Origin: Picochlorum sp. SENEW3
Lineage: Eukaryota
DNA: 64,000 nt
Direction of reading: 5' to 3'
NCBI GenBank assembly: GCA_034226945.1
Contig: CP120453.1
Location: 1-64,000 of the forward strand
The position numbers and the translations under genes were made by a program. Positions 1 through 51,995 of the stretch are shown here, piece by piece; positions within the stretch are counted from its first letter, which is position 1, and every line of letters starts with the position of its first letter. The notes under the pieces are model-generated. The model was not told the DNA's origin. It searched no databases and saw nothing but the letters and a program-made list of their open reading frames with translations.

Positions 1-65
1 CTCAGTACTTCGTTCAGTTACGTATTGCTCCCTATACCCTATACCCTGTGCATACCGTCGTTCTT

Positions 66-3000: not shown

Positions 3001-4578
3001 TTTACCCCTTCACCCCGCCAAATGACCATGCCAGAGACAATGTCCACTCTTTTCGCTTTGCACATACATTGATATCATATAAATACGTCAACACAAAAAC
3101 GCGCAGGACTGGACATTGTCTTTGACACCACCAAACAGGCGCTACAAGGTCGCTGACACTCACCACCAGGGTGACCACTTCAACACGCCGAATGACCATG
3201 CCAGAGACAATGTCCACTCTTCTCGCTTTGCACATATATTACTAGCATAAAAATACGTCTACACAAAAGAGCGCAGGACTGGACATTGTCTTTGACACCC
3301 CCAAACACGCCCCACAAGCTTGGTCATAGTGAGAACCAGCTTTACCACTTCACCCCGCCGAATGACCATGCCAGAGACAATGTCCACTCTTCTCGCTTTG
3401 CACATATATTACTATCATATTAATACGTCTACACAAAAGAGCGCAGGACTGGACATTGTCTTTGACACCCCCAAACACGCGCTACAAGGTCGGTCATACT
3501 CACCACCAAGGTGACCACTTCACCCCGCCGAATGACCATGCCAGAGACAATGTCCACTCTTCTCGCTTTGCACATATATTACTATCATATTAATACGTCT
3601 ACACAAAAGAGCGCAGGACTGGACATTGTCTTTGACACCCCCAAACACGCGCTACAAGGTCGGTCATACTCACCACCAAGGTGACCACTTCACCCCGCCG
3701 AATGACCATGCCAGAGACAATGTCCACTCTTCTCGCTTTGCACATATATTACTAGCATAAAAATACGTCTACACAAAAGAGCGCAGGACTGGACATTGTC
3801 TTTGACACCCCCAAACACGCCCCACAAGCTTGGTCATAGTGAGAACCAGCTTTACCACTTCACCCCGCCGAATGACCATGCCAGAGACAATGTCCACTCT
3901 TCTCGCTTTGCACATACATTGATATCATATCAATACATCTACACAAAAGAGCGCAGGACTGGACATTGTCTTTGACACCACCAAACACGCGCTACAAAGT
4001 CGCTGACACTCACCACCAGGGTGACCACTTCACCCCGCCGAATGACCATGCCAGAGACAATGTCCACTCTTCTCGCTTTGCACATACATTATTATACTAT
4101 AAATACGTCTACACAAAAACGCGCAGGACTGGACATTGTCTTTGACACCGCCAAACACGCCCCACAAGCTCACTGATAGTGACCACCAGGGTGACCCACT
4201 TCAGCCCCCTGAAAACCAACCTCAGAGACATTTGTTTTTTCTTTACGATCTCTCAGATACTACTTATATATGATTATATATCTGGGCAAACGTGCGGGAC
4301 TGGACACGTTTTCGTCTGGTAGGTAGACCACTGCAAAGGATTGGACTACTGACAGTCACCTTGTCCCAAGTGGGGGCGCCTTTTTCTCCTTGTGGCGCGC
4401 CCAATTTTGTGCCAGTTTTGGACCCCTCTGAAATGGACCCAAAACAAAATATTTTTCAGTTCTGACTCGTGTTTGATGCTATTGAAAGGTAAATAAAACT
4501 TAATATGTGGAGAGACGGGGCACATCGTCAAAAAATCTATACCCTACCGTGCTTGACACATGGATTTGGGCCATATAA
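66..4578. mobile_element. Repeat element family A, copy 1 (A/C-rich head, tRNA-like segment, 170-bp array, unique tail); non-coding, class unknown
   Basis: Starts GGCAGGAGGGTAATGAGGGTA, the same head as the element at 4579. Bases ~251-4578 recur nearly identically at ~8765-12208, both ending ...TTTGGGCCATATAA. Confidence 0.75.
1772..4200. repeat. 170-bp tandem array, ~14 units
   Basis: GACATTGTCT recurs at 1891, 2061, 2231, 2401, 2571, 2762, 2942, 3112, 3282, 3452, 3622, 3792, 3962, 4132. Two intervals are lengthened by small insertions. A degenerate unit follows to ~4320. Confidence 0.97.
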
Positions 4579-5779
4579 GGCAGTGAGGGTAATGAGGGTA
4601 TATATCCACATAGTCACCCCACTTCCCACCACACAAACAAAAAATAAACACGATTTATAAATTAAATAATATACAAACTACCCAAAAATAAGAAAATATC
4701 CAAAAAATCAAAAATAAAGCCAAGAAAAAACACCACCAACAAGACCAAAATACCCTAACCAAAAAAACACACCAACCAAAAAAACATCCAAAAACACCAC
4801 CAAAAGAACGAGAATATACAATACAATATCAAGAAGAATAATAAGTAGTATAATAAGCACCTATACTATATATACAACGACAACGACAACAACAAAAGAC
4901 ACGGCATACCACAAGCTCTGCTACTACTACTGCTGCTCCTCCTCCTACTACTACTACAACAACAAGAGAAGACAACAACAACAGCAACCAACACAAAAGC
5001 AAAGCAAAGCAAAACCAAAATCAAAAGATACAAATCTCATAATAATCATAATGACACAACAACAATCTATACTATGCTATGCTATGCATGAATGAAAAGA
5101 ATCTCTGTCTTCTTCTTCACAACAGCAACAGCAGCATCAACAGAAGGACACAATATTAAGTAAGTAAGTAAGTAAGAAGAATACCAATAATAATAATAAT
5201 AATAAACACCCATCATTAAAAAAAAGCGTCGCACACCCAGTGCAAAACAAACAGTGGTCTGCTGCCACATGTCTGAAGAAGAGGGAGCAGCTCGGAACAA
5301 CAAGAATGGCGATCTTCCCATCACCCCTTGACTTGACTGGGACCACCACCAAAAACATACCAACCAAACCAATACACAAAATAAAAAGGGTGTTGTATAG
5401 CAAAAAAAAGTAGCACTCACCAAAGCGTCGCACACCACCTGAAACAACAACTCTGACAACACACACCACAAGCTCTGCTACTGCTACTACAACACAAGAG
5501 AACACACCAACAAAGCAAAGCAATCAAAAGAAGATACTATCTCATACCAGTTACTATTAGTTAGAGAAATAGTAATAATCATACTAACATGCACAACAAC
5601 AATCGATATGAGCAAGCAGCCAATAATAACAGGAGGAAACACAAATACACACACACAACAAGAAGATAAGAACCTGGAGATAGACTCACAGACAAGATAT
5701 GAGATAGAGAGAGGTACAAGAAGAAGTATGTGAAAAGACATGAGACAAGAAAGAATGAAAAAAGTATTGTCTTTGTTTC

Positions 5780-7412: not shown

Positions 7413-8707
7413 GCGCCCACAATCGTATCCCAAGCGTTGGGAAGTGACTCCCAGACACACCCCTCCCTGGATGACCGGTCACGCAAAATCTTGGAAATCT
7501 GAGAAAGGTCTTTTTGAATTACATCTATATCAGGTGCCTGAAAGTGACAAACCAGGGAGCAGAGCTCTCACGCGCCCACAATTGTGCCCCAAGCGTTGCA
7601 AAAGTGCCTCCCAGACACACCCCTCCCTGGATGACCGGTCACGCAAAATCTTGGAAATCTGAGAAAGGTCTTTTTGAATTACATCTATATCAGGTGCCTG
7701 AAAGTGACAAACCAGGGAGCAGAGCTCTCACGCGCCCACAATTGTGCCCCAAGCGTTGCAAAAGTGCCTCCCAGACACACCCCTCCCTGGATGACCGGTC
7801 ACGCAAAATCTGGGAAATCTGAGAAAGGTCTTTTTGAATTACATCTATATCAGGTGCCTGAAAGTGACAAACCAGGGAGCAGAGCTCTCAGCCGGCCACA
7901 ATCGTGCCCCAAGCGTTGCAAAAGTGCCTCACAGACACACCCCTCCCTGGATGACCGGTCACGCAAAATCTGGGAAATCTGAGAAAGGTCTTTTTGAATT
8001 ACATCCATATGAGGTGCCTGAAAGCGACAGACTAGAGAAAAAAGCTCTCAGGCGAGCACAATCGTGCCCCAAGCGTTGCAAAAGTGCCTCCCAGACACAC
8101 CCCTCCCTAGATGACCGGTCACGCAAAATCTTGGAAATCTGAGAAAGGTCTTTTTGAATTACATCTATATCAGGTGCCTGAAAGTGACAGACTAGAGAAA
8201 AAAGCTCTCAGGCGAGCACAATCGTGCCCCAAGCGTTGCAAAAGTGCCTCCCAGACACACCCCTCCCTGGATGACCGGTCACGCAAAATCTTGGAAATCT
8301 GAGAAAGGTCTTTTTGAATTACATCTATATCAGGTGCCTGAAAGTGACAAACCAGGGAGCAGAGCTCTCACGCGCCCACAATTGTGCCCCAAGCGTTGCA
8401 AAAGTGCCTCACAGACACACCCCTCCCTGGATGACCGGTCACGCAAAATCTGGGAAATCTGAGAAAGGTCTTTTTGAATTACATCTATATAAGGTGCCTG
8501 AAAGCGACAGACTAGAGAAAAAAGCTCTCAGGCGAGCACAATCGTGCCCCAAGCGTTGCAAAAGTGCCTCCCAGACACACCCCTCCCTAGATGACCGGTC
8601 ACGCAAAATCTTGGAAATCTGAGAAAGGTCTTTTTGAATTACATCTATATGAGGTGCCTGAAAGCGACAGACTAGAGAAAAAAGCTCTCACGCGCCCACA
8701 ATCGTGT
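7413..8707. repeat. 160-bp tandem array, ~8 units, two sequence variants
   Basis: CAGACACACCCCTCCCT recurs at 7452, 7612, 7772, 7932, 8092, 8252, 8412, 8572. Variant segments are CAAACCAGGGAGCAGAG and CAGACTAGAGAAAAAAG. Confidence 0.97.
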
Positions 8708-8764: not shown

Positions 8765-11700
8765 ACACACACCAACCAAAACAACAATATAGACAACATA
8801 TGAAAGAAGAAGAATTATAATAAGAAGCACCCTTATATATACAGCAACAACGACTAAAAAAACACGGCACACAACAAGATCTGCTCCTCCTACTACACCA
8901 AAACAAACAGCAGACCAACAAAGACGACGCAAAGCAATCGAAAGAAAATAGCTCATAATACTCCTCATTGATAATGATAATGATAAGAACATACACAACA
9001 ACAATCGACACGACCAAGCAACCAACAATAACAGGAACAGGACACAACAGAACCAAACACACAACAAGAGAAGAGAACAACCTGGAGAGAGATAGGATAG
9101 ACTCACAGACAACATCTGAGAGATTGAGAGAGAGAGGTGTAATAGTAATTGTAGTAGTAGTATAATATATGAAAAAAAATAAATAAATAAATAAAAGACA
9201 TGAAATGAAATGAGAAAGAACGAAAAAAGTATTGTCTTTGTTTCACAACAATAACAACAAGCACTACTAGAGTAACCAACCTCACACCGATGGTTTTGGA
9301 GTTTTTCAGTATCTTATCATGCAAGGCACGCGTACGTACTTATGTACTTGAACGTCGACTTCTATCTGTGAATGACAGGAAATCACGACATCCCCGGTCA
9401 GACGTCCCTTAATACAAGAAATCAACAACCATCCAGCATGCACCACCACTACTACTACTACTAAACAACACACAAACAAAGAAGCAAAGCAATCAAAAGA
9501 GAAGCAAGTAAATATCTCATAATAGTAGTAGTAGTAATGATAATAACATGCACAACAATCCACACGAGCAATAATACCAACCAATAATAACAGAGCAGAA
9601 CAGAACAAAGCACACAAGTCTCATGCTCACAAGAAGAAGAACAACCTGGAGCTACCCTACACAGACAACAAGTGAGATAGAGAAAGAGTTATAATAATAT
9701 CATCTCCTTCACAACAACAACAACAAGCAAGCTGTGGCAAGCACTAGAGTAATGTTGCTTGAATGCTGGAGGAAAGTATGACATTGTCTTACGTAGACTT
9801 CATGAGGAGTTGCAATTAGAATAGTAGGACATAACTGCGACGCTTCTTTGAATGAGGGAGATGTCGTCGTGTTTATGTTGCTGCCAAGAAAGCAGGCGAG
9901 TCACAGCTCTCCTCCTCGACCAGCTGGCTGTGTGTGTGTGCTCCACATCCACTCCCATCAAAATATGTGTTCGATGGAGAGAGCTGTGAATCACAAGAAA
10001 ATCCACGACATATCCTCGGTCAAACCTCTTGTGTGATGGGATGGGAAGAAGAATGAAAAACATGCCACCAAAAAGCACGACGAGTGTGCCCGAGCGGTCT
10101 CATGGTCGTCCTTTTTTATTGTCCTCATTGACGGACGAACACCACGTCCGAGGAGACCGGGGTTCAACTTGGTCCTACTTTTTTATTGTGTTTGTTTACG
10201 GAGAGATCTCCGTACGACACAACCTGCCGTACCGAAACACCAGGGCGCCCTGTCCACACACATCAGCAAAAGAGTTGTACCTGCCACCAAGGTCACCCCT
10301 TCACCCCGCCGAATGACCACGCCAGAGACAATGTCCACTCCTCTCGCTTTGCACATATATTACTATCATATCAATACATCTACACAAAAACGCGCAGGAC
10401 TGGACATTGTCTTTGACACCCCCAAACACGCGCTACAAGGTCGGTCATACTCACCACCAAGGTGACCACTTCACCCCGCCAAATGACCATGCCAGAGACA
10501 ATGTCCACTCTTCTCGCTTTGCACATACATTGATATCATATAAATACATCTACACAAAAGAGCGCAGGACTGGACATTGTCTTTGACACCACCAAACACG
10601 CCCCACACGCTTGGTCATAGTGACAACCAGCTTTACCCCTTCACCCCGCCAAATGACCATGCCAGAGACAATGTCCACTCTTCTCGCTTTGCACATACAT
10701 TGATATCATATAAATACATCCACACAAAAGAGCGCAGGACTGGACATTGTCTTTGACACCACCAAACACGCGCTATAAGGTCGCTGACACTCACCACCAA
10801 GGTGACCACTTCACCCCGCCGAATGACCATGCCAGAGACAATGTCCACTCTTCTCGCTTTGCTCATACATTGATATTATATAAATACATCTACACAAAAG
10901 AGCACAGGACTGGACATTGTCTTTGACACCACCAAACACGCCCCACACGCTTGGTCATAGTGACAACCAGCTTTACCCCTTCACCCCGCCAAATGACCAT
11001 GCCAGAGACAATGTCCACTCTTCTCGCTTTGCACATACATTGATATCATATAAATACATCTACAAAATAGAGCGCAGGACTGGACATTGTCTTTGACACC
11101 ACCAAACACGCGCTACAAGGTCGGTCATAGTGACAACTAGCTTTACCCCTTCACCCCGCCAAATGACCATGCCAGAGACAATGTCCACTCTTTTCGCTTT
11201 GCACATACATTGATATCATATAAATACGTCAACACAAAAGAGCGCAGGACTGGACATTGTCTTTGACACCACCAAACACGCCCCACACGCTTGGTCATAG
11301 TGACAACCAGCTTTACCCCTTCACCCCGCCAAATGACCATGCCAGAGACAATGTCCACTCTTCTCGCTTTGCACATACATTGATATCATATCAATACATC
11401 TACACAAAAGAGCGCAGGACTGGACATTGTCTTTGACACCACCAAACACGCGCTATAAGGTCGCTGACACTCACCACCAAGGTGACCCCTTCACCTCGCC
11501 GAATGACCATGCCAGAGACAATGTCCACTCTTCTCGCTTTGCTCATACATTGATATTATATAAATACATCTACACAAAAGAGCACAGAACTGGACATTGT
11601 CTTTGACACCACCAAACACGCGCTACAAGGTCCGTCATACTCACCACCAAGGTGACCACTTCACCTCGCCGAATGACCATGCCAGAGACAATGTCCACTC

Positions 11701-12208
11701 TTCTCGCTTTGCACATATATTACTATTATATAAATACGTCTACACAAAAACGCGCAGGACTGGACATTGTCTTTGACACCGCCAAACACGCCCCACAAGC
11801 TCACTGATAGTGACCACCAGGGTGACCCACTTCAGCCCCCTGAAAACCAACCTCAGAGACATTTGTTTTTTCTTTACGATCTCTCAGATACTACTTATAT
11901 ATGATTATATATCTGGGCAAACGTGCGGGACTGGACACGTTTTCGTCTGGTAGGTAGACCACTGCAAAGGATTGGACTACTGACAGTCACCTTGTCCCAA
12001 GTGGGGGCGCCTTTTTCTCCTTGTGGCGCGCCCAATTTTGTGCCAGTTTTGGACCCCTCTGAAATGGACCCAAAACAAAATATTTTTCAGTTCTGACTCG
12101 TGTTTGATGCTATTGAAAGGTAAATAAAACTTAATATGTGGAGAGACGGGGCACATCGTCAAAAAATCTATACCCTACCGTGCTTGACACATGGATTTGG
12201 GCCATATA
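8765..12208. mobile_element. Repeat element family A, copy 2 (left-truncated by ~185 bp, array shorter by 5 units)
   Basis: Near-identical to ~251-4578. Identical ORF translations at 800..1111 vs 9306..9617 and 4346..4531 vs 11977..12162. Confidence 0.9.
10284..11830. repeat. 170-bp tandem array, ~9 units
   Basis: TGGACATTGT at 10401, 10571, 10741, 10911, 11081, 11251, 11421, 11591, 11761. Confidence 0.97.
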
Positions 12209-12209
12209 A

Positions 12210-12759
12210 CTCTTTTTGAATTACATCCATACGAGGTGCCTGAAGGCGAGAAACCAAGGAGCACAGCTCTCACGTGCCCACAATCGTGTACCAAAGATCA
12301 CCAGTTTTGGCTGAAACCAAAAGTTTGAGGTTATGGACCCCCCCAGGGTTGCAGATAGTGTCATATTTTTGTCATATTTGGTGTCCCATCAAAGCTCAAT
12401 TTTGACCGAAAATGTCATATTTTGTGTCATGTTTTTGTCATATTTTTGGTACGGTCAAAGGGTACCTTTGATGGGATGTGAGTACTGATGTATAGAATAG
12501 GCCTGTCAAAAAGTACTTTGATGGGAGCCAAACGTCAACTTGGCGCTGAAGAGGGTCAAGGAGGCTGCAGCCCAACTGCCCCAACTTCCACTGCTCTTGG
12601 TGTCATATTCTTCAGCGAGGTGTCATATTTTGGTGTCATATTGCCAAAAAGTGTCAATTTTCGTGTCATATTTCCTGGCGGAAATATGACACCAATTTCG
12701 GGAAATGTCATAAAAAAGCAAAATATGACACTATCTGCAACCCTGGACCCCCCTTTACA
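12210..12759. repeat. Right-end fragment of a second, more diverged family-B copy, interrupted by the MITE
   Basis: 12211-12343 plus 12754-12759 align with 8629-8766 (last 160-bp unit plus tail ending CCCTTTACA). Confidence 0.85.
12344..12745. mobile_element. Non-autonomous hAT-type DNA transposon (MITE), 402 bp
   Basis: Perfect 26-bp TIR CAGGGTTGCAGATAGTGTCATATTTT. 8-bp TSD GACCCCCC at 12336-12343 and 12746-12753. Many subterminal TGTCATAT motifs. Empty site GACTCCCC-TTTACA at 8754-8767. Confidence 0.93.
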
Positions 12760-13719: not shown

Positions 13720-16149
13720 TTACATGCCAGGTAGACATCTCCATTCTCTGCCCTCTGTTTTCCCAAAATTTTCAAAATGATCCCAACCCGATTGTAATCT
13801 TCCAGCAAGAATTTCTGTATTGACATCTTCGTAAACCATTCTGTAGAATTCTTCACCCCCTGGACAAGCTTTTGATGGACGTGACCTTCCGAAAACGTCT
13901 ACTGCGAGATCAGAGCCAACCAGAGCTTGAATACAGGAACCCAGGTTGCAGTTCATCCAAAGCTTATGCATACCAAACGGGGCATCAACTCGGCACTTTG
14001 AACCGACCGAAAATCGATTAGCGATGTGTGGTGACGGTAACGAGAAATTATTCTCAACCAAACATTGGGAGAACCACGAATCCTCTGCCATTCCATCCCA
14101 CATTGAGGCATTACTTTTGAACGGGACCTTGAAATTCTCCAGACACCAAAGCATAGCAGATCTTTTTCGAAGACTCAAGCCTCCATTACCTCCGCTGTTA
14201 CTTTGGAGAGCACTAAGATATCTCCAATGGATGGCCGGGAAAGTTTCAGGGTACACAGGTGAACCGACGTAATCAAAATCAAAGAAATCCTCAATTCCAT
14301 CCCGCAGAAGAAGTGCATCTGACTGAGTTATTAACACAAACTCGCATTGAACTGTTTTTTCCCACAAAAAGTCAGAAAGCAAAAGTTCATTATACTCCCT
14401 AGGTTGGTCTGAGAAATTTCCAAAAATTGAGGGGATCTCGATTATTTCTATTGCAGTGCCCTCATACTTTTGTCTCCAAATGTCTGCAACAGCTGGTGGA
14501 CCGAGTAGATAAAATTTCCAATAGCGGCCCAAAAAATGCCGGTGCACTCGCAAACTAAAGTCAAGCCATGGGTGTTCACGCCCATCAATCATGACTAGAG
14601 CACTGCAGGTATTATTTTCATATGTGGGTATCACATTCCCATCAAGTGGCCATTTCTGTACAGTAGGATATGCTCTGTCGATAAAAAACTGATAAAAGCC
14701 CAGACAATCGAGAGTGGTGCCGTTCGACGAATCCTGATACCGAGAATAGCACGACCAAGATCTTCCCTCAGCTTTCCCATACTTCAAGTAATGTTCATGA
14801 CCTGTTCCACCTTGCTGTATGGCTTTTTTAACGTCTGGATAGTTCTCAAGATATATTGCTTCTCTGTCGCACTCTAAGAATTGATTTCTCAAACGATCAG
14901 GAGGACAAAAATAGTGGCTGGAGGGAGAGAGATGTCCTGTGGTGAGGTAATGATTCCTGGCAGACCTCACTTGCATATGGCTATTTTGTAGTAAAGATAT
15001 TAGATAATAAAAGTCACTGCATGATCTATTGAATTCATCTCCCGTAGAGTGAAGCATGCTTGAAGCGTGGGTTTTGTCAAGCCAGAATCTCCCTTCATTC
15101 GTCAGGGATGAACAACCAGTGTACATCCAATATTCTGCATGCAGAAAGTGCATGTTGTTATATAATGATGCCATGATATTTTTATTACTTTGATTATTGC
15201 AATGTGACAACGTTAGAGAGACGTTTTGCAGTAGTTCTAATTTCAACGCGAGGTTTTTGCCACCTGCTCCTGATAGGCTGTGGCCTACATGAAATCCTAT
15301 TGAGTCGCCGTAGTGGTGACAGTCCACATTAAATGGAGAGCAGAGTCCATATATCCCCTTTAAATTTACGTATTTGACAGGAATCCTGGATCTCCAGATC
15401 CAAAGTCCAACTCCTCTGTCTTCTTCCCGGTAAATACGACCTCGTCTGTAAATTCTTACTAAATTTTCTCGACTCAGTAGAGCATCAACAACATCCAGTG
15501 ATAACCCATACATTTGTCCTAAAGCCCACAGTGGTAAAAGGTCCAAGGAGGTGCTATATTGTAGCCTCTCTCTGTACTCAATCGGTTGGTTAGGAAGCAT
15601 TTTACCAAAATATACTAGAGATGCAGGTAAAGTCCTTATGACTTCTACAAGCCTGTGATATGATACAACAACATCCGTGTCCACTTTTATGACATAGCAT
15701 GCCGTGCATGCTCCTTGATAACTATTCAAAATAGATGAAGCCGACGACAATAATGCCATAGTTTGCAACATGAGCCTTTCATAATCTGGTTCTTCCTGAA
15801 CAATGCGAATATCTCGGAATGCCGCCTGCTCCTGTCTTGTCATGTTTAGCAAATTATCATCAACAGAGAAGATCACAAATAGTTGTCGCATAAAGGCCAA
15901 ATTTTGAGCTCGATGATTCTCATTCCAAAATGATCGGAGCTTTCTCCGCTGCCAAGACCGGAGCGATTGCTCCTCAGCCCGACTGATAGATGCCATAACA
16001 ACACACAATCTGGTATCCTTGCTCGAGTCAATAGTCAGTAGAAAGAGAATAATTACTAAAATTGCTACGGAGCAAGTGACGAGAACTCCTCCATCATAAC
16101 CATATCGTCGTGCCCTCAACCTGCGCGAAATCCTGACTCTATACACCAT
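13720..16149 (-). CDS. Type II membrane multi-domain glycosyltransferase: GT31/galactosyltransferase-like + YPDV..HY..G..EGR repeats + DUF5672-like
   Basis: 809-aa intronless ORF with an N-terminal TM. GT31-like motifs YVIKVDTDVVV (DxD) and EEDRGVGLW. DUF5672-like motifs LITQSDALL, DYVGSP, GGNGGLSLRKR, EDSWF, PFGMHKLW. Confidence 0.8.
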   Translation of the reverse strand: MVYRVRISRRLRARRYGYDGGVLVTCSVAILVIILFLLTIDSSKDTRLCVVMASISRAEEQSLRSWQRRKLRSFWNENHRAQNLAFMRQLFVIFSVDDNLLNMTRQEQAAFRDIRIVQEEPDYERLMLQTMALLSSASSILNSYQGACTACYVIKVDTDVVVSYHRLVEVIRTLPASLVYFGKMLPNQPIEYRERLQYSTSLDLLPLWALGQMYGLSLDVVDALLSRENLVRIYRRGRIYREEDRGVGLWIWRSRIPVKYVNLKGIYGLCSPFNVDCHHYGDSIGFHVGHSLSGAGGKNLALKLELLQNVSLTLSHCNNQSNKNIMASLYNNMHFLHAEYWMYTGCSSLTNEGRFWLDKTHASSMLHSTGDEFNRSCSDFYYLISLLQNSHMQVRSARNHYLTTGHLSPSSHYFCPPDRLRNQFLECDREAIYLENYPDVKKAIQQGGTGHEHYLKYGKAEGRSWSCYSRYQDSSNGTTLDCLGFYQFFIDRAYPTVQKWPLDGNVIPTYENNTCSALVMIDGREHPWLDFSLRVHRHFLGRYWKFYLLGPPAVADIWRQKYEGTAIEIIEIPSIFGNFSDQPREYNELLLSDFLWEKTVQCEFVLITQSDALLLRDGIEDFFDFDYVGSPVYPETFPAIHWRYLSALQSNSGGNGGLSLRKRSAMLWCLENFKVPFKSNASMWDGMAEDSWFSQCLVENNFSLPSPHIANRFSVGSKCRVDAPFGMHKLWMNCNLGSCIQALVGSDLAVDVFGRSRPSKACPGGEEFYRMVYEDVNTEILAGRLQSGWDHFENFGKTEGREWRCLPGM

Positions 16150-16165
16150 ATATAGACCTATACAG

Positions 16166-16442
16166 ACTCTCAGGCTGGTGCTCTAACCCACAATTATTAG
16201 GCCGCTTTTACTTTATTCCTTGGTTCCCGTATGGTGCCAAAATCTGAAACCTGTTCGGTCCTTCGAGAAATACAGAGAAATAGTACCGTAGTATCCGTAA
16301 TGTTTCGGAAATGAGACTTGCAAAAAGTGAAAATCCTTCCGAAAATATAAGATTTAGCCCGATACTTTGATTTTTTTATTTTCCAGTCTTACATGCCCGG
16401 TGGTGAATTAATTAGTGTGGGTTACAGCACCAGCCTGGGAGT
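16166..16442. repeat. 277-bp segment bounded by 27-bp inverted repeats (MITE-like, no TSD seen)
   Basis: ACTCTCAGGCTGGTGCTCTAACCCACA (16166-16192) matches the reverse complement of 16416-16442 with 2 mismatches. Confidence 0.75.
16284..16371 (+). repeat. 88-bp direct repeat, copy 1
   Basis: TACCGTAG...GATACTTTGAT, 3 mismatches to 19511-19598. Confidence 0.95.
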
Positions 16443-16650
16443 TCCCGGTCGACGGAGGAATTCGCGAATTACCTGCAGGTACCCCGCTTGATCAAGAGGC
16501 GACCTGGTCAGGGGGCATTGATGTAAAATCATACATACATACATACGTACGTACAAATTGGTAATCAATCAATTGATAAAAATCGTTTCTCAATTGATTC
16601 CTGCTCTGTGTGTCAGACGGGAAGTTGTCGGGCCTGCTTTGTCAAGCGGA

Positions 16651-19467
16651 ATGCATCTTCAATTTTCACTTGGGCTTCGGCGGCCAAGCATGGTGATGCT
16701 TATGTTGATATTGGCATCGCTTGGATACACACACACATATATATATACACATAGAGAGAGAGATTGGGAATATGTTAGTCGCAAGGTGTTTGTCAACGCG
16801 ACTGAGGAAAATCTAGGCTCAAGCAATTTGGTTAATATTTACACATTTCAGAAAGATGAAGGTAGTCTTTTATGGGATTGGGGGCTCTACCATGGATCTT
16901 TGTTTGGTTACGATTCCTTGCACATACTTGATCACAACTCTGGTGACCATTATACAAGATCTGCTCTTCAGAAACTTCAGAGGAGAGGAGCCCAAATCAG
17001 AACATCAAACGGCACTTTTACTCACAAGAATACAGAGCTCACGAAGTGGATGGCAGAGGCATCCTCCGAATTTCTCGTGCCGATAGATGTAGACGAATTT
17101 TTGGTTCTTTGGAAGGGCAATGCTATTTCGACAGACTCGAAAGACATTCACAATCATTTTCGCTTTGTCCCAAGAGATGGGCGGCGATATAGAATGGCAT
17201 CAATATCTACTATGGAATGTCCAACTAGAACATTCCAAGATGATGCACAATCATTCAGGAGGACACATAGGATGACAACTTTTATCATGCCTGGAAATCG
17301 TCTAACTTGCATGTCAAAAACCTTTTATTTCAGACAAAGTTTTGTCCGCACAGACCAAGGAAATCATGGCGGAACGGTAACAACAGATTCACAGGACAAA
17401 ACCAAAGGATACACTGTTGGTAGATGCCCATATTATCACTCCCCAAACTTAGCGCTCATCCACTATGGCAGTTACTTGCCATGGGAAATACAAAATAAAA
17501 AAATGATGAGAGGTGCCGTAGTGTACAATCACACAGGGAAGGTGGACGCTGGGATGCCATGTGGAGAGATGGGGGTGCATTACTGCTGGTGGTATCAGAA
17601 GATCATTCAACAAGGCGAGACAAACCTCAGGAATGAGTATGAGGCAAGGATTCCGTGCAATAGGACTGATTTGTTTTCATCCCAGGCAATCAAAATAGTA
17701 ATACAGCAGGAGGAGATGGGAATAGGAGTGGTGAATCACCATACAGAGAAGAGGCCTCTGAATGACATGTCTGGTGTGGAGAAGGTTTTCATAGTGGGCA
17801 CATCACACTCTGGCACTTCAATTTTAGAACGGATAATGGGTAACATTCCAAGTTTAACTGCGCTATGTAGAGAAACTGAGATGTTTTTAGGGAAACCGTT
17901 TAAGCCTCTTGATCCAACTGATTCAGTCTTGTTGAAGCTTGCAGATGACTTTGACTCTGATGCGGTAAAGAGAGGTGCAAAGTTCTGGATTGAAAAGACT
18001 CCCAGACATATTTTTTTTATTTCGCGAATTCTGGAGATGTTTCCCAAGAGTTACTTCGTGTGGATCACCAGAGATCCTATTCAAGTTGCCATATCACTGA
18101 GAAAGAGAGGGTTAGGAGTTCACTGCAAAGGTAGTTTTTCTGGATGTGGTGAATACTGGACAAAGGGGAATGAGCACGCATTTTATCATTTATCTAACGT
18201 ACCTAGAGTATTTCGACTGAAGTTTGAGCATTTGTACAGTCGAGACCACGTGTTTGATGTACTTCAAGACATTTTTGCCCTGTTGGATATTGATGTGCCT
18301 GTGACATCTTCTCTCCTTCAGTCAGCACGACGCCAGGCTTCGAGAAATTGCTATCGATTTACATCGGAGAGGGAGAAAGAGAGAATTTTGTTCCAGGAAG
18401 CGGTGTCAAAGTCTATGAACAGCTTTCAGAATGCTGTAGATCCAAAGAACCATGACATCTATAGAGCAATCCAAATGTCATCAGATTGGAATCAAGCAAA
18501 GCCATACAATGTCTCTGTATTGGACTCGCTGGAAATACTACGTTCGAATAGAACACGATCCCTTGCAAGGAGACTAGGATACAACTATCCGTCAGTAATA
18601 TTTCAAGCTGAGAGGCTTTCTGGAAGTCCATTGCTTGACCAGGATAACACAGGTTTTGAGAATATGAATGGGGTGACAGTCATTAAGACAGAACCTTGGA
18701 TGGTATTTAATGTATCATATATTATGTATTTTGCTGGGCATGTAGGGAAAGAAATCAGAATTGCAGGGTCTAATAGTGGTCAAGGTCCTTGGAAAATGCT
18801 TGGTGCAGTTGTGCTAGAAGGTTTCCATGCAGCATGGAGTCATATAGCTAGTCCGGACATATATATAGACAAGCCTGCTACAACAGTTCGACTGTATTTT
18901 CACGCTGCTACAAGAGAAGGTCAATGGACATATGTTGCGATAAGCAGGGATGGTGTCACATTTTGTATGCATTCCATGGCAAAGATTGCGCCATTTTACT
19001 TGCGTGTATTTGTCATTGACGGAACATTTTATGGCTTGGCCAAAATCGGAAACAACTCAACAGCGATCTTGCATTCTAGTGATGGACTAACAGAGTTCAA
19101 GCAAGGCCCACTGATTCTACCAAACAGTAGGCATACATCAGTACTTCTAAAAAATGGATCAGTGCACATATTCTACACCATAGTAGATGAAGCGCCTGAG
19201 CGAATTTATCATACTGAAGTAATGAATCCTCAAGCTGACTGGACAACATGGTATGTAGGAATTGGTGTTCCCATTCTAGAGCCTGAACTACCTTTCGAGG
19301 GCGTGGAAATGCCTTTGGTTCCATCAGAATTTGGTCCAGCGCCAGGTTTAGTTCGACAGCTCAGAGATCCTTATATTTTTGAGGATGATGAAGACATAGT
19401 ACTTTTTTATGTTGCTGGTGGCGAAAGATCTATATCCATTGCCAGGTTGCTTGTATCAACCGAGTAG
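16651..19467 (+). CDS. Multi-domain glycan enzyme: GT2-like + sulfotransferase + five-bladed-propeller glycoside hydrolase-like
   Basis: Intronless ORF; first ATG at 16651 is followed by a hydrophobic anchor. GT2-like: FQKDE..HILDHNSGD..PIDVDEFL. PAPS-binding motifs: VFIVGTSHSGTS, EKTPRH, RDPIQVAIS. GH32/43/130-like blades: HIASPDI..RLYFH..AISRDGVTF..LRDPYIF. Confidence 0.82.
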   Translation: MHLQFSLGLRRPSMVMLMLILASLGYTHTYIYTHRERDWEYVSRKVFVNATEENLGSSNLVNIYTFQKDEGSLLWDWGLYHGSLFGYDSLHILDHNSGDHYTRSALQKLQRRGAQIRTSNGTFTHKNTELTKWMAEASSEFLVPIDVDEFLVLWKGNAISTDSKDIHNHFRFVPRDGRRYRMASISTMECPTRTFQDDAQSFRRTHRMTTFIMPGNRLTCMSKTFYFRQSFVRTDQGNHGGTVTTDSQDKTKGYTVGRCPYYHSPNLALIHYGSYLPWEIQNKKMMRGAVVYNHTGKVDAGMPCGEMGVHYCWWYQKIIQQGETNLRNEYEARIPCNRTDLFSSQAIKIVIQQEEMGIGVVNHHTEKRPLNDMSGVEKVFIVGTSHSGTSILERIMGNIPSLTALCRETEMFLGKPFKPLDPTDSVLLKLADDFDSDAVKRGAKFWIEKTPRHIFFISRILEMFPKSYFVWITRDPIQVAISLRKRGLGVHCKGSFSGCGEYWTKGNEHAFYHLSNVPRVFRLKFEHLYSRDHVFDVLQDIFALLDIDVPVTSSLLQSARRQASRNCYRFTSEREKERILFQEAVSKSMNSFQNAVDPKNHDIYRAIQMSSDWNQAKPYNVSVLDSLEILRSNRTRSLARRLGYNYPSVIFQAERLSGSPLLDQDNTGFENMNGVTVIKTEPWMVFNVSYIMYFAGHVGKEIRIAGSNSGQGPWKMLGAVVLEGFHAAWSHIASPDIYIDKPATTVRLYFHAATREGQWTYVAISRDGVTFCMHSMAKIAPFYLRVFVIDGTFYGLAKIGNNSTAILHSSDGLTEFKQGPLILPNSRHTSVLLKNGSVHIFYTIVDEAPERIYHTEVMNPQADWTTWYVGIGVPILEPELPFEGVEMPLVPSEFGPAPGLVRQLRDPYIFEDDEDIVLFYVAGGERSISIARLLVSTE

Positions 19468-19510
19468 AATTTATATTAGGGCGGATCAAGTCGATTGTGG
19501 GTTTTTTTTC

Positions 19511-19598
19511 TACCGTAGTGTCCGTAATGTTTCGGAAATGAGACTTGCAAAAAGTGGAAATCCTTCCGAAAATATGAGATTTAGCCCGATACTTTGAT
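19511..19598 (+). repeat. 88-bp direct repeat, copy 2
   Basis: Matches 16284-16371. Confidence 0.95.
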
Positions 19599-19843
19599 CA
19601 AAAGTGAGAGATATCCTCTCAATTATGGCTTGAAAAATAGCTTGAATTCTACTGATTCCAGTGCTACCTCTCCCGCTCGGAACCGCCCTTTGAAACTCTC
19701 AAAAATCAACAACAATGCTAGAATGAGCGACCCGTGGCGACACCACTTCATGGCGACTTTGATGGACAATGGGTGCTGTTTCAATTCCCTCGCCCCCTGA
19801 TATATCACTAATTCAATATTATATTGCTATTACAAGAAGAAAA

Positions 19844-20117
19844 AGGGCCACTTACATCGACGATTTTGGGTTGGGTCGTTGGGTTGGTTGCCCTGTTGCC
19901 CGAGACATCGCCTCAGTGGAGGGCCTCTGTCACCAATAAACCCACCCAGGACCATAAAAGACCTTCTTAGAGTGCTGAGAATACGATATTGGGTGAAAAT
20001 ATCGCACATGAGTGCAAGAAAACCTCTTTTGCCAAACTGGTTGACTGGCCAGAGGCAACAGGCTCTCTACAGGCGAGGTATGTCGCTCTTGGGCAGCAAA
20101 CGTCAAGTATTTATTTT
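19844..20117 (+). ncRNA. Candidate structured non-coding RNA of unknown family
   Basis: Nested helices 19894-19905/20087-20098, 19908-19913/20071-20076 and 19916-19926/20060-20070. A 5' hairpin and several internal hairpins. Non-Watson-Crick pairs within the helices are G-U on +. T-rich end. Confidence 0.5.
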
Positions 20118-20401
20118 ACAAATTGCGCGTACATCCATCCATCAATAGGAAAATCTAATCGTCTTTCATACATCGGCACTGTATCCACTACTAAATACTA
20201 TTTCGTTTTGAGATCACACTGAGTGCATCGACGTATATATACATCGACAGAGAAATCTTACGCTTGTATATGCGACTGTATCAAGCATTTGTGTAAGCAT
20301 TACTTGATCGGCCAACGTGTGCAGATGGATTACAAACTTTCCACCGCATTAGTTTGGGCGCTGGCTGGATATCTGGGTATTCCAACCCTTTTTTGGATGG
20401 A

Positions 20402-21100
20402 ATGGCAAGGTTTCTATGGCTCTTCCTAGGGTGTGTGTTACTCTGGAGTTGTGGTCCTATCTTTTCTGTCATGGGACTGGATAATGATGATGATGATGAT
20501 GTACCAGCAAGAGATACTGACATTGTCGTTGTCAAAGGCGTATCAAGAAAACTACTGCAGCAAAGTGCTACAGATGCTGAGGGAAAGCAGAAGATGGAGG
20601 AGGAGAAGCTCAAGTTTGAGATTGATTGACTGATCATAAAGAGCTTCAAACTACTTGAAAAAAAATCCTTGCCCTGTTTGCTAACAAGGAACTCTAGCTT
20701 CACTGGCAGTGGGGATAAATTGTCTAGATTGAGTGCCACTCAATTTAACATGAAATTATCGACAATAGTAGCCAGGCTGTAGCAAATGGAAGAGCGAAGC
20801 ACACAACACAGCGACAGACCCTCACAAGGTAGAGAAAAAAGGGCACATTGTCAACCACTGAGGAAGGCCCTTGCCACAAGGAATGTCCCAAACCAACCGA
20901 AATTGCATCCAAGTAATCATCACTCTTTCATAGCAACGATTTGAGCATGTGAAAGCCATGTTGAGATTTCTGTCAAGAGATGGCCGTGCTTAGGACACCA
21001 TGGTGTTTGACCAAGCTTTGGTGACAACAGCCCAACGTCGCATGATGGCACTCCTGAATCTCCACTCTCTCTAAAACAGCGCAACGTTATCAAACAGTAG
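20402..21100 (+). pseudogene. Probable decayed gene for a secreted pro-protein
   Basis: MARFLWLFLGCVLLWSCGPIFSVMG signal-like peptide, acidic stretch, RKLLQ cleavage-type motif, then a stop at 20629. Downstream frames look coding-like but are broken by stops; the 3' limit is approximate. Confidence 0.45.
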
Positions 21101-22112
21101 CGAAATCAAATGAGCAAACAACAGAAATATCCATTCACGCGTTTGGATATCAGGAGGTTTCGTGACGCGATCCATGTACGTGCACATGCACGCTTTCTTT
21201 GAATAACGGAGCTAATATAATGGCCGCAATTCCCCACGTCGGGACGCCTCCCGTGACAGGACCTATGGCTAATTAATCCGCGCGATAGAATGTAATTCAG
21301 AACACACTGATTATTCATCCATGCACTCGTGTTTAGGTGCAAGCGATCCATTGTGATTCAAAGTAGTGAATTCTTCGAATATCCAATAAATCTTTAACAC
21401 TATAATGTAGCATCCAAATGAAAACCTTTGAGAGAATTGGCGCCGATGTTTGGAGCCTGTCCTTGTCCCACTCACTATTGAAAGCGATGGGAGGATCCGA
21501 TTTGGGACAACGAAGAAAAGAATCACTGGCACTTTGACCCCGGCAAAAAAGACGGGGTTAAGACTTCCTCGTCCCAAAATTTAGGGCATGGGCGTGCATG
21601 ATGTTCATTCCATTCCCATCTCCTTGAAAATTGCCATTCTCTTCCCATTGATACACTGGAAATGGAGTATATCCGCCGAGGGAGAGAAACAAAGGCTGCG
21701 ACGAGTCATGAATACATTTCTATATTTGAACGACATTTGCACAACAGAAAAAAATTATGGCTCATCCAAGCGATGGCCAATAGCGGCAAGTATTCGACCC
21801 CGGCATGTTTCCCAGCTAGATTGCGGTCCACGCGTTTTTTCAGCGGACAAGGCCTGAAATTGTACACATTTAGCGCAACATCAAAGCTAGATGCTTAAGA
21901 AGAAACATTTTGTTTCGCTTTAAATAACCCGCAGTTCCTGTCCATTTGTGCCGAATCTGACATTGGGTTGGTTGGTAGCCGAGAGAACAAATGGATTTTT
22001 TGCCTGAAAGATAATGTCAGCTCGTAATCTCTTAAATTCAGGGAATACAACGTTACAAAAATACAAAGGAATCCAATACAAGCAGTGTTCTCATAATATT
22101 CATTCCACACTA

Positions 22113-24981
22113 CTACTCCCACGCATCAATCTCATCACGAGCAGAGGGCAGGGAGGATAACTTGACGTCAGAGCCATTCTCAACACTCATTATATCCTCA
22201 AGATCCATGCTGCTGAGTATATACTCAGGAGTATCATTATTCTGGTTTCTATACGTCGCAGAAGCCACTTCGAACAAACCCTGTTTGCCGCCGAGACCTG
22301 TTGATTGGGCGACAGAGGAAACGTGCTCCTGCCACTGAGATGTACCAGATGCTGGGCTCGTCTGGGCTAGTTGGTACCCTAATTGCTCTGCCAATTCGTA
22401 CACCCCTCCCCATTTTTCTATAGCCCTCGCAATGTCGAAGCGATTGGCCCTCACAAAGTCATTCTTCAATGGCATGACCCCTGATGGCAGATCGCTACTC
22501 AGGATGAACTCGTCAATCTCATGCTTCACATTCTCAATGGAATTCCAATATCCCCGAGGCTTTCGTGAGCGACTTTTTGATCCCCATCCCATCCGTTTTG
22601 CCACATTGGAAGCACCACCATGTGCAGACAGAGCCTTTTCTAAGTCGGTGCGATGAGAAGCTCTCAACTCGGACCGTGACGGAATCATCCTGGTATCTCC
22701 ATAGGTTGCTTCCAATTCATCACGAAGCACCTCGAAATTTTTAATCATGTCTGCAAACATTCGTACAATATGATTGGCATCCCCATAGGTTGCTATGCGT
22801 CAAAAAAGATTTGAAAAAGTCAACAACGCGACGTACCTCCAAGTTTGGGCCTCTGCCTTGTTGGCACTATCACTCCGCCATCTTGCTCAATGCGACGTCG
22901 TTCTACCTCGTGTTTGATGGCCATCAGGTTGTTGGGCATATCTTCAAACACCATTCCTTCCAGCAGTGGTTCAATAAAGCCACACATGGATGCCTGGGTT
23001 GGTATGATGATCTCAACAGCATATTTCAACAGTGTCTGGGGACCAGCATAATCCTCCTGGACATCACCTACTACTTCTTGTATCGCCCATTTCCCCTGGA
23101 ATTTCTCGACATCCCCTGCCACTTGTCGAAACTGGACTTCGCTGCACACACAGACAGAGAGATACATGTTGTTGATTAACTCCACTCCTAGTATCATCAT
23201 CATCATCATGATTACCATGTATATCGAGATAAGACCCATCGTAGTAGTAACTCACCTGAATGGCTTCTCAACCAGGTCCATGACAGATTCGGCATGAAGG
23301 CACATGTAATACATATTCTTGTATCCAACCTGCCTCACTCGCACCACGTTTTCAGGCGCTGCTCTGGGAAGTCTGATTCGCTCACTAGAAGCCAGGTTGG
23401 GAACGAACTCTGCAAGCCTATTGTAGTCTGTGAGGACATCCCATACAAGCGAGGGAGGTGCATTGATCCTAATTGCTGCAATGGACCTCCGATGCAAATA
23501 ATCCAGGCCATCAAGCCTCCTCAAATGAATTTCAATGTCGTCATTATTGTCCTCTGATGACGAGTTTTTTCTGGGGTCGCCTGAATCAACCCCAGAAAAA
23601 ATCAAGGCTTTATTATTGTCGCCTGTTGCTAGAAAAGCGCTCCTTGTACAATCGCCTCTTGGCAGCATCGTCACACCATTGCTATCATGATCATCATCTC
23701 TTCCCAGAGCATCTCTCCCGGAAGAAGTCTTCTTTTTCTGCTCCAATTCATCATTGAGAGCTTCTTTCACAGACACATTTCCCGGAGCTCCCGAAGGCGG
23801 CAAAGGCACCCATGCAGTTCCCAAATAGGCAGACTTGGCTGCATCCATCACTGCCAAGCGATTCTGTCTTTCTGCTGTGATTGGCGCCGATGCTGCATAC
23901 GGGGATCCTCGGGGCCAAAATGGACCTTTCGAAGGCAATCGTGCCTCATCATCATCATCTTGCTCAGCATTCTCTCTGGAAGCATTCTCTATGAGCTGTG
24001 GAATGTCTGGGTTGACCTCTGTCCCAACCCAAGATGCCAATCCCGATGCTTTCAACCTTGATTCAGACACGGACTCTGCCCGAGATGCTATGGCTCTAAT
24101 ATTGGATGGAAGCCCAGCCTTGATGATGTATGACGTAATCTGTGAAGGCAAACTGAATCGAGGCTGGATGCAAATGTCATACCTCAGAAATGTCGACATC
24201 TGTGCCGAGCTCGCCATGTTTGACTCGACAATCCACCGTCCATACAATTCTTCGAAATCACCAGAGACCATTCGGAACCGCACCTCCTTTCTCCATGACG
24301 ACGACGTATCCACCTCTTCCACCTCGAGCTCCGCCTCCGCCTCCAGGCGCCACAGAATGCTCTGACTACACCCAACTTGACGTAGCCGCGTGACTCCAGG
24401 CTTGGCAGATGGCAACCTCTCACAAACCTCTAAATTCGGAACAAACCCAGGCAGAGCTTCATAATCAGTCAACACACCCCAAACATCCTCCAATTGAGCT
24501 TGCACCCTAACCTCTGCCACAATACGTTTTGACCCATCCTTCCTTTTGTCATCATCATACATGTGGATCCCAGTTATACTACTACTATTATTAGTCGTAG
24601 TATAACGCCCTCCTACATATAGCAGTATTTTGACATTATCAGAGATCAATAGAAATGAAAAGAACAGCCAATCTCTACTATGGATTCACAATCAATCATT
24701 GAGAGATAACTCGTACCTTGTTGTTGTTGTTGTTCTCCAGCATCATTGGCCAGTGCTCCATGGATGATGCATCCCTTCTTCTTCTTCTTCTTCTTCAACA
24801 CATGATGAAATGATGATGATGATGACGAGAATCGTGCACCATGTGCAACAACAAAGAGACTCTTTTGTGCTATAGAACATCTTTGCCTCAAAGAAGAAGA
24901 ACCTGAAGGCCTCTGTCCTCTACACACTTGGTGAAGAGAGGCTGGCACATGCACCGTGAGTATGCTCCGCTCCAATGCCAT
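22113..24981 (-). CDS. Plastid-type protein with two polyketide-cyclase/START (Coq10-like) domains; 4 exons 24981-24717, 24612-23256, 23141-22837, 22750-22113
   Basis: Two VWxVLTDYxxLxxFVPNL motifs. C-terminal RKPRGYWNSIEN..DIARAIEKWGG as in plant homologs. GT-AG introns keep the frame. Confidence 0.88.
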
Positions 24982-43570: not shown

Positions 43571-44564
43571 TTAGATGGCAGAGAAGTACTCCTTAGAACC
43601 TTCTGGGTCTGGCTTCATGGTCTTCTCTCCTGGCTTCCATCCAGCTGGGCAAACCTCATCTGGGTTGTCCTGGACATACTGGAGAGCCTGGAGCACACGG
43701 AGGGTCTCATCGACATTTCTCCCGAATGCCAAGTTGTTGATGGTGGAGTGCTGGATGACTCCCTCCTTGTCAATGATGAAGAGTCCACGAAGAGCAACTC
43801 CATCCTCGGACAAGACTCCATAAGCCTCTGAGATTTCTCTCTTGAGATCAGAGACCAATGGATAGGCGAGGTCTCCGAGTCCTCCCTCATTACGTGGGGT
43901 CTGCACCCAGGCAAGATGAGAGAACTGAGAGTCGACAGAGACTCCGAGAACCTCTGTGTTCAGGTTCTTGAACTCTTCGTATCTGTCAGAGAAGGCTGTA
44001 ATCTCAGTTGGGCACACAAAAGTAAAGTCCAATGGGTAGAAGAAGAGGACGATATACTTTCCCTTGTACTTGTCGAGGGAAACATCGATGAACTCCTGGT
44101 CATACACAGCAGTGGTGCTGAAATCTGGAGCGGCATTTCCCACAAGTGGAGCCTGCACATGGAATTGAGCACAGAGTCAGCACACAGAGGTCGGATCTCA
44201 GCCACACCATTACAATGTCCCATAGAGACACATCCAAATGCATCCCACTATGATCCATATGAAATAATCAAGCACATTAAATTCCCCATGCGGAATATTG
44301 GGCTACAGAACGAGTTCCTACTACGATTCTGTGGCGATCAGACGTCTGACAGAGCGCCACCGATCTCGACGTATACACCATCATTGTGGACAGATCTCCG
44401 CCACATTGCGAATCAAACATGATTTATCAACGTACCACGGCCTTGCAGGTAGTATCCACGGACACACGGCGAGACACACCAGCAACCTTGAGGGCAGCAG
44501 CTGGGCGTCCAGCACGAACAGCAGTGGAAGATGGCACAGATGCCACGCGCATTGTCTTCATCAT
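43571..44564 (-). CDS. Plastid 2-Cys peroxiredoxin; exons 44564-44436 (transit peptide), 44152-43571
   Basis: [15 protein letters not shown] and [11 protein letters not shown]. Confidence 0.97.
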
Positions 44565-50900: not shown

Positions 50901-51995
50901 AGTCAAGCTAAAGAAGGGTTTCATTACAAGTTTTCCCAGGAACTGTTCCTTGGTGGCCAACAAAACGTTTGGGGCAAATGGATCCAATCAAACTCTTCCT
51001 TGCCAAGCCCACTCGAAGGTGCATTCTCAAATGCTCAGTTTCAAATTCTCTGCACGTCCACAGACTCAGAGAGTTCTTGGAAAGTATCTCCTCCTCTGAA
51101 GAAGGATGGTATGGCAATTTTAGAGGATGAAAGCATCGATGTCACCATGGCTTTTGGTTGGCATGCTGTGAGAGACACGCCTATCGAAAGTGACCACGGA
51201 GGTCCGGCTTGCTCTGGAATTGAAGGCTTCCCTCTTTCATGGGAAACCAGAAAGCTTCTTGTAGATGCCATGGACAATATTCGAGGAGACGAATATCAGG
51301 AAGATCCCCTCAGAAGAATCAGTCTGAAGCGCAGATCTTTGAATGAGTCGATTACCAGCGATGTGAATAGTTCAACCGCACTGGTTCCCGCATTTTGGTA
51401 TTTCCGTGGGGACTCATGCGAAGTCAGACCGGTCAAACCAGAGGATTTGTATGTCGCCAGGGCTATTCCAGGTAGACATTATCATCCCAATGTATCATGG
51501 TCAGATATCTGGCTAGCATGCGATGCTTATTTATCGTCGGATGAGACCAATCACATCTGGTGGAACTTCAAGTGTGTTCTAACAAATAGTGATAGAGTTG
51601 AAAGAGACAATTCTGGGCAGAATGGATTGGGATCAGATTTGTCCTTTAATGAATGCCCAGACATGTACAGAGGCCCAATGTTGGTTGGACTCTTTGATAG
51701 AACATCAATAGGCATAATAGGCGAGACAATAAGTAGATTTGGTGTCATCGGGCTATATTCTGTATTCGTATATGGTATAGGGAGATTCTTGCGATTGGCA
51801 ATAACGAACCTGAGAATGAGGATACCATATGAGAACTTTCCCTCAACTGAACGGCTCATGTCGCTCTGCCAGGATATCTACATTGCACGAGCAGAAAAAC
51901 TCTTTGAACTCGAAGAAGAACTATATGCCGCACTTCTTGCTGTGTATCGTCTTCCAAATGTCATGTACGAATTGACAACAAAGAAAAAGAATTAG
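44922..51995 (+). CDS. PIEZO: Piezo mechanosensitive ion channel (~2313 aa); exons 44922-46562, 46630-50270, 50336-51995
   Basis: Many TM helices. PFIYEIRQILDWSCTTTALTLYDWLKLEDI (PFEW motif), ALQLRSGYP, LCQDIYIAR..ELEEELY. Introns keep the frame. Confidence 0.95.

Follow-up and report, generated by a model that had tools for sequence, protein, structure and literature searches.

An RNA-like fold near an algal chromosome end may lie in a conserved non-coding block whose subtelomeric copy is rearranged

RESULTS AND DISCUSSION

The window, by which we mean the whole 64-kb stretch of DNA analyzed here, carries at 19844 to 20117 a plus-strand sequence that an earlier note, made from the sequence alone, had put forward as an undescribed structured RNA. 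We find that this fold is the right half of a larger non-coding block (block A; Table 1) that is present in more than one copy, and that a rearrangement junction lies just past it in the window's copy. The explanation we favor, with belief and doubt about evenly balanced, is that a conserved non-coding block of low copy number, which contains a local imperfect inverted repeat, has a rearranged subtelomeric copy in the window, and that intact copies are probably contained in a longer transcript. The fold would then consist of this inverted repeat and a hairpin rich in G-U pairs. The block around them, non-coding and at least 0.5 kb long (∼19603 to 20106), would be a member of a small duplicated-sequence family of Picochlorum-type algae. 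The window's copy, 19.8 kb from the chromosome end, would be a rearranged paralogue lacking at least 478 nt that follow 20106 in the other copies seen, and is probably a relic with no function of its own. The intact block would most likely be transcribed by Pol II within a longer RNA with a poly(A) tail, either a long non-coding RNA or a long leader, and the 28-bp stem would form a stable structure inside that RNA.

One genome carries a protein annotation on this non-coding block of ∼0.5 kb, which is near-identical across several organisms of the Picochlorum type and environmental data sets; if its conservation is due to selection, it would be a new algal non-coding RNA. The site is also a cautionary case, in which a shuffle-beating fold, a TATA-like tract and a T-run together mimic a small RNA gene, with a junction in place of a "terminator" and equal folds in coding sequence.

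Table 1. Positions of the fold, its helices and the neighboring sequence modules in the window
Feature	Position	Strand	Description
5′ hairpin	19844-19894	+	20 bp in four helices, 6 G-U; G+T-rich tract
AGGGC/GCCCU helix of 5′ hairpin	19844-48/19890-94	+	in MFE structure
UCGACGAUUU/GGGUCGUUGG helix of 5′ hairpin	19857-66/19873-82	+	in MFE structure; 10 bp, of which 5 are G-U
Stem domain	19895-20097	+	bulged closing stem of 28 bp (11+6+11); the 133 nt inside it hold small hairpins
Closing stem, part 1	19895-19905/20087-20097	+	11 bp, in MFE structure
Closing stem, part 2	19908-13/20071-76	+	6 bp, in MFE structure
Closing stem, part 3	19916-26/20060-70	+	11 bp, in MFE structure
Inner hairpin	19964-70/19975-81	+	in MFE structure
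Inner hairpin	20004-07/20012-15	+	in MFE structure
Nested helix holding TGGGT/ACCCA	19943-49/19989-95	+	probability 0.71; competes with CGATATT/AATATCG
TATA-like A+T tract	19798-19827	+	18 to 44 nt upstream of the proposed start; within block A and "exon 1" of the SENEW3 model
T-run TTTATTTT	20111-20118	+	in block B, beyond 20106/20107
Block A	19603-20106		non-coding; the source organism has two or more diverged copies; near-identical in other organisms; the fold is its right half
Rearrangement junction	20106..20107		specific to this copy; contig loose ends in X1, X5, X7 and X12
Block B	20107-20625		second repeat family, ∼85 to 90%, more diverged; more copies in organism C; holds the T-run
88-nt dispersed direct repeat	19511-19598 and 16284-16371		96.6% identity over 88 nt; the copies bracket a sulfotransferase/glycosyltransferase ORF
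CCCTATA telomere repeats	30-47	+	2.5 units; 19.8 kb from the fold
Satellite arrays	1772-4208, 7413-8706, 10284-11839		units of 170/340 nt and 160 nt

Folding of the plus strand

The minimum free energy (MFE) of 19844 to 20117 was −100.8 kcal/mol on the plus strand (z = −3.86), which none of 200 dinucleotide shuffles matched, against −86.1 kcal/mol on the minus strand (z = −2.02; 6 of 200 shuffles as good), so that the comparison with shuffled sequence that the earlier note had named as a check came out in favor of its fold. The same strand difference is seen in the parts, with z-scores of −4.12 (0 of 300 shuffles) and −2.29 (4 of 300) on the plus and minus strands for the stem domain alone, and of −3.62 (1 of 300 as good) and −1.39 for the 5′ hairpin alone. 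Pair probabilities of the stem and the 5′ hairpin were 0.89 to 0.98 across four contexts, in which up to 1.4 kb was folded (0.55 and 0.93 kb among the others).

The 5′ hairpin that had been drawn from AGGGC/GCCCT and UCGACGAUUU/GGGUCGUUGG has both helices in the plus-strand MFE structure, as do all three helices of the proposed bulged rod, the outermost with 11 bp (19895-19905/20087-97). Among the enclosed pairings the agreement is partial: the hairpins at 19964-70/19975-81 and 20004-07/20012-15 are recovered, and CGATATT/AATATCG and GTCA-CCA/TGG-T-TGAC are absent from the MFE structure. Two pseudoknots had also been suspected, of which TGGGT/ACCCA proves to be an ordinary nested helix (19943-49/19989-95; probability 0.71) and GGGTT/AACCC is a bare 5-bp complementarity.

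Selection on a single strand had been proposed from the imperfect pairs, which are G-U on the plus strand. In the MFE structure G-U pairs make up 4 of the 28 bp of the three-part closing stem, and when its arms are aligned as DNA they give 28 matches, 4 mismatches and 10 gap columns; the stem is absent among the 7 inverted-repeat pairs listed by a DNA repeat search of the window. The asymmetry itself is found, with 10 G-U-type and 0 A-C-type mismatches over both arm alignments. Its reading as selection is less secure: the 3 versus 0 of the stem is not significant, and the 7 versus 0 of the 5′ hairpin falls in a G+T-rich tract (G 0.35, T 0.33).

Fold stability against the background of the window

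Because the site had been chosen as the best-looking one in 64 kb, the window is the proper control for it. We regressed MFE on composition over 2,126 windows of 274 nt, which placed the plus-strand fold in the top 1.1% (residual z = −2.63) and the minus strand at 9.5%. An RNALfold z-score scan of both strands returned 1,077 local structures with z ≤ −3 in 187 distinct loci of at least 120 nt, among which the stem domain (19894 to 20099; z = −5.27) ranked 24th. The loci above it are mostly satellites of the first 13 kb. Beyond 13 kb it is third, followed within 0.3 z by seven more loci at −5.20 to −4.99, at least five of which overlap long protein-coding ORFs. The stability of the fold lies in the extreme tail of the genome's own background and is not exceptional, and since comparable stability occurs in that tail, including in coding ORFs, stability alone is no argument for an RNA gene. 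Two minus-strand loci score higher than the stem domain, one at 43802 to 43993 (z = −5.61) and one at 52834 to 52975 (z = −5.35) inside an MFS transporter ORF.

Copies and variation of block A

Parts of 19790 to 20150 occur in 24 public sequencing runs from 14 studies, with a sampled-word share of 0.73 to 1.00 in three runs of one sample and of 0.09 to 0.44 in the remaining runs. Four runs (X1, X5, X7 and X12) were compared as contigs over 19000 to 21000; X1 holds all of the sampled words, and neither stretches without contig cover in X5, X7 and X12 nor low word shares in metagenomes were counted as absence or as a sign of habitat. Summed contig depth in X1 was 68 and 65.5 in the flanks, 119 to 237 over 19603 to 20138 and 300 to 390 over 19469 to 19602. 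Paired variant contigs of this run cover 19634 to 19780 (with 0 and 8 differences) and 19905 to 20088 (with 0 and 12), each at about flank depth. Two such contigs per segment imply that the source organism carries at least two diverged copies; the two forms would be paralogues or very different haplotypes. The only repeat within the window for this region is the 88-nt one at 19511 to 19598.

Pieces of block A in X5, X7 and X12 are 93 to 98% identical to the window, with 3 to 10 differences per 128 to 251 nt: 3 in 182 nt in X12 (19764 to 19945), 4 or 10 in 138 nt (19849 to 19986) and 5 in 154 nt (19957 to 20110) in X5, and 10 in 251 nt in X7 (19517 to 19767). The neighboring ORF has matches of only ∼85 to 88% identity in organisms sharing these pieces, and 12 of its 15 listed differences are at third codon positions; the nine differences listed in 19623 to 19856 fall into residue classes 3/4/2, with no 3-nt periodicity. 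The identity of block A is above the neutral expectation for non-coding DNA, unless the organisms are very closely related or paralogues account for the ORF matches. BPE23, SENEW3 and P. tauri are described as phylogenomically close in PMC12458973, and this closeness may explain part of the identity of block A between organisms. The genus is not uniformly close, since an average amino-acid identity of 88% is given for P. costavermella and SE3 in PMC6141220. The high between-organism identity of block A stays unexplained by a duplicated subtelomeric block, our preferred reading.

Conservation is not specific to the fold, since the left half of block A (19603 to 19843), which has no fold signal (z = −0.35 on both strands), is equally conserved. 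Of the differences known in 19603 to 20106, which number 14 (12 among the better-supported ones listed, plus 19832 and 20010 deduced from the protein model P0001 described below), none affects a base that is paired in the 28-bp stem or in the 5′ hairpin, and the widely shared 19856 A>G is on an unpaired bulge of the latter. In the inner hairpins, 20058 A>G keeps its pair as G-U, and 20047 G>T (opposite U20042) and 20055 G>A (opposite C20032) break theirs, with no partner change among those listed. Invariant pairs carry no information on structure. The variant positions would weakly favor constraint on the stem and speak, as weakly, against the inner hairpins.

Besides this identity between organisms, two points count against the duplicated-block reading: the plus strand folds clearly better than the minus strand around a stem that is robust to context, and 0 of the 14 known differences are on paired bases of the stem or the 5′ hairpin, which could mean constraint on these helices. 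We regard as rather improbable the reading in which block A, with its 28-bp stem and 5′ hairpin, is a genus-wide conserved structured Picochlorum RNA of few copies (a long non-coding RNA or a processed RNA of ∼250 nt) kept at 93 to 98% identity by selection; the window's copy would then be a truncated paralogue and the SENEW3 "protein" a mis-annotated RNA gene.

A copy-specific junction downstream of the fold

In all four runs, contigs whose match ends at 20106 (20110 in X5) continue with an identical foreign sequence, the start of which was not found anywhere in the window and which has an ATG 26 nt past the junction, and contigs of X1 and X7 that match from 20107 on have other sequence before that position. 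A 523-nt X12 contig covers 20062 to 20106 and then continues for 478 further bases. The window's own 20106/20107 join is seen in none of the X5, X7 and X12 pieces and loose ends listed; the source organism has both long and short forms at this place. We infer that the window's copy probably lost at least 478 nt here, by deletion rather than by insertion into the other copies.

Junctions also occur at 19511 and 19598. The 88-nt repeat at 19511 to 19598 has an X1 depth of 300 to 390, or ∼5 copies in the source organism. In block B, up to 8 X7 contigs match at one place, and an X1 contig (record 8) spans 20265 to 20625 with 49 differences and 22 gaps. Block A combines a position near a telomere, known for the window's copy, with at least two copies and mosaic boundaries, which together define a subtelomeric duplicated block. 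Subtelomeric low-copy repeats and segmental duplications are exemplified by the yeast X and Y′ elements and by telomere-associated sequences. Block A resembles these in lying less than 20 kb from the telomere, with satellites and an internal telomere-adjacent copy nearby, and in its few diverged copies, mosaic boundaries and non-coding character; it differs from them in an identity between organisms above the expectation for fast-evolving subtelomeres.

The surrounding 2.6 kb (19468 to 22112) has no convincing ORF in an otherwise gene-dense window and holds at least four repeat modules of differing copy number. A 76-aa ORF from the ATG at 20400 has a signal-peptide-like start and an Asp run, and the ORF between the two 88-nt repeats encodes 969 aa with sulfotransferase and GT2-like domains.

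Mobile repeats

Alternatively, the sequence could derive from a repeat that is mobile or was spread by recombination, for example a non-autonomous transposon or a foldback-type element, of which it would be a fragment; its stem arms would be decayed internal or terminal inverted repeats, moved to several loci and perhaps between lineages. We consider this unlikely. There are several copies per genome with differing flanks, sharp common boundaries and high identity between organisms; copy number differs among the modules 19476 to 19505, 19511 to 19598 and 20107 to 20625; aligned as DNA, the arms form an inverted repeat with 28 matches; and unclassified repeats are put at 1.87% in SENEW3 in PMC11092101. 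Against it, the stem does not bound the repeated unit, as contigs of other organisms cross both arm ends (19764 to 19945 and 19957 to 20110), and we saw no target-site duplication beside 19894 or 20098. Nor was a transposase or reverse-transcriptase domain found in 17 long ORFs scanned with Pfam, and copy number is low (∼2 in X1). Three patterns gave 0 matches each in viral contigs, and there were likewise none in prokaryote genome contigs (0 matches) or, with blastn, in plasmids and phages. A metagenome scan with a 20-mer from the single-stranded tract returned four loci, which we take to be chance matches because none has further similarity to 16000 to 24000 (blastn E ≤ 1e-5).

A MITE or foldback transposon has terminal inverted repeats at the ends of its unit and a target-site duplication; here contigs cross the arm ends, and the flanks of 19894 and 20098 are not duplicated. 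The likeness to such elements lies in two arms of ∼32 to 38 nt within repeated DNA, which form 28 bp and enclose 133 nt. The unlikeness lies in a unit that extends past both arms, in the absence of a visible target-site duplication and in a 10-nt asymmetric loop in the arms.

Transcription and the SENEW3 gene model

X12 is an oligo-dT metatranscriptome, and its contigs cover 19615 to 19945 with no break at 19844, so that cover sets in 229 nt before the proposed start; in the long form it extends to 478 nt after 20106. All four runs were read as contigs, which give no proof of transcription, strand or ends, and DNA may occur in an RNA library. Taken at face value, the X12 contigs would favor a polyadenylated transcript of greater length over a Pol III product of 270 nt.

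Among 5.8 billion proteins the translations of the element have a single match, the hypothetical protein PSENEW3n2_00000923 of Picochlorum sp. SENEW3 (P0001; 81 aa, two accessions), which was the only match of the 89-aa and 58-aa frames; the 83-aa frame, searched against 1.84 billion representatives, gave only a chance match to a repeat protein (E = 2.3e-4). P0001 joins the window's frames 19769 to 19915 and 20008 to 20077, and its last exon is not in the window. That the sequence is a small spliced protein-coding gene, as annotated in SENEW3, would accord with this join and with GT at 19916 and 20078 (the latter GTATGT). Against this, AC rather than AG precedes 20008, no spliced contig was seen in X1, X5, X7 or X12, and no Pfam domain is recorded for P0001. 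The window differs from P0001 by five amino-acid-changing and two silent differences, which coincide with run variants at 19801, 19856 and 20047; neither purifying selection on codons nor a homologue in another taxon was found. We judge a spliced gene very improbable. Since changing differences outnumber silent ones by 5 to 2 and no spliced contig was seen, we take P0001 to be a probable mis-annotation of non-coding DNA; and because of this ratio, the lack of 3-nt periodicity and the lack of any homologue except P0001, block A is predicted not to be protein-coding.

Known RNA families, telomerase RNA and the Pol III unit

Rfam 15 gave 0 matches at gathering score in the entire window, in line with the earlier note, which had recognised no family. 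At E ≤ 10 the region 19600 to 20400 has four matches, all with E ≥ 4.7, the best at 15.4 bits against a cut-off of 45. A search for tRNA genes, as such or as the source of a tRNA-derived SINE, found 0 in the window.

A divergent telomerase RNA had been suggested from TAAACCC, which lies beside possible pairings, and this we consider exceedingly improbable. CCCTATA is the telomere motif predicted for Picochlorum by Fajkus et al. 2021 (PMC8287931), according to which the template of a Picochlorum telomerase RNA must carry it. The window's own telomere repeat is CCCTATA, and none of its 7-mer permutations is present in 19401 to 20400 on either strand, so the element has no template and, unless the telomeres of this organism are built on another motif, a telomerase RNA is excluded on this ground; its presence in several copies and the lack of an Rfam match or a USE of the related-alga type also count against it. 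The USE motifs listed for related green algae (A. protothecoides and Ostreococcus; Table 1 of PMC8287931) are ACCCATAA and CCCRTAA, and neither occurs within 2.9 kb of the element; CCCRTAA has four matches in the window, the nearest at 16870, and as a consensus from other green algae it may not be that of Picochlorum. Relative to the green-algal and plant telomerase RNAs of PMC8287931, the element is alike in a size of ∼250 to 300 nt, a TATA-like tract upstream, a T-run that follows the fold and a single-stranded tract rich in C. It is unlike them in having neither a CCCTATA template nor a USE-type motif, in its more than one copy and in a T-run that the copies do not share.

The TATA-like tract (19798 to 19827) and the T-run (20111 to 20118) that had been read as the bounds of a Pol III unit are both present. 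The T-run is on the far side of the copy-specific junction, so the arrangement of TATA, fold and TTTT is an accident of the window's copy, and the continuation in all four runs has no T-run in its first 30 nt. With contigs crossing 19844 unbroken and no related-alga USE within 2.9 kb, a discrete Pol III unit is not supported. The resemblance to Pol III type-3 (snRNA-type) genes is confined to the TATA-like tract ∼18 to 44 nt upstream and the downstream T-run of this copy; unlike those genes, the element has no related-alga USE and no conserved terminator, and contigs of an RNA library cross its proposed start.

These results bear on the view of the earlier note that the element is a discrete, undescribed structured RNA of ∼255 to 270 nt on the plus strand, present in few gene copies and conserved across Picochlorum. 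The stable plus-strand fold, robust to context, and the absence of a known family stand; the discrete Pol III unit and the telomerase reading do not. For a discrete RNA speak the plus-strand z-scores of −3.9 to −4.1 against −2.0 to −2.3 on the minus strand, the robust helices with 10 G-U-type to 0 A-C-type mismatches, paired bases of stem and 5′ hairpin free of known differences, high identity across organisms, the occurrence of the sequence in RNA libraries and the TATA-like tract 18 to 44 nt upstream. Set against these are a T-run outside the sequence common to the copies, no USE-like motif of the related-alga type nearby, metatranscriptome contigs that run through the proposed 5′ end and, where they have the long form, through the proposed 3′ end as well, conservation that is equal over 240 unstructured nt upstream, pair-breaking changes at two of the three known inner-hairpin substitutions, comparable z-scores inside protein-coding ORFs of the window and the lack of an Rfam match. 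On balance we hold a discrete RNA gene to be improbable.

The chromosome end and the rest of the window

The first ∼29 nt of the window resemble a nanopore sequencing adapter, and the CCCTATA repeats that follow indicate that the window starts at a chromosome end. Positions 1 to 47 are a chromosome end with a putative untrimmed adapter and give direct support for the unusual telomere motif predicted for Picochlorum; patterns of the TTAGGG and TTTAGGG types had 0 matches. Satellites fill much of the first 12 kb. The folds of their units are very stable on either strand, and most of the best z-scores in the window come from them. At 4537 (4537 to 4660), CTATACCCTA is followed by sequence resembling the telomere-adjacent 48 to 130, an internal copy of the telomere junction, and the same 10-mer, CTATACCCTA, recurs with its upstream sequence at 12168 (12168 to 12210). 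Both sites are ∼330 nt past a 170-nt satellite array. These internal copies look as if left over from chromosome ends of the past or from a duplication of subtelomeric DNA.

The genes of the window are of green-algal type. The MDHAR ORF has 93% identity to proteins of Picochlorum sp. BPE23 and to a cluster holding P. renovo, and 63% to a cluster holding P. soloecismus. Two plus-strand ORFs at 46651 to 50346 and 50343 to 51995, which overlap by 4 nt, both have Piezo channel domains, with a THU9-anchor domain split between them; this points to a probable single Piezo-like gene with a frameshift, a short intron or an assembly indel.
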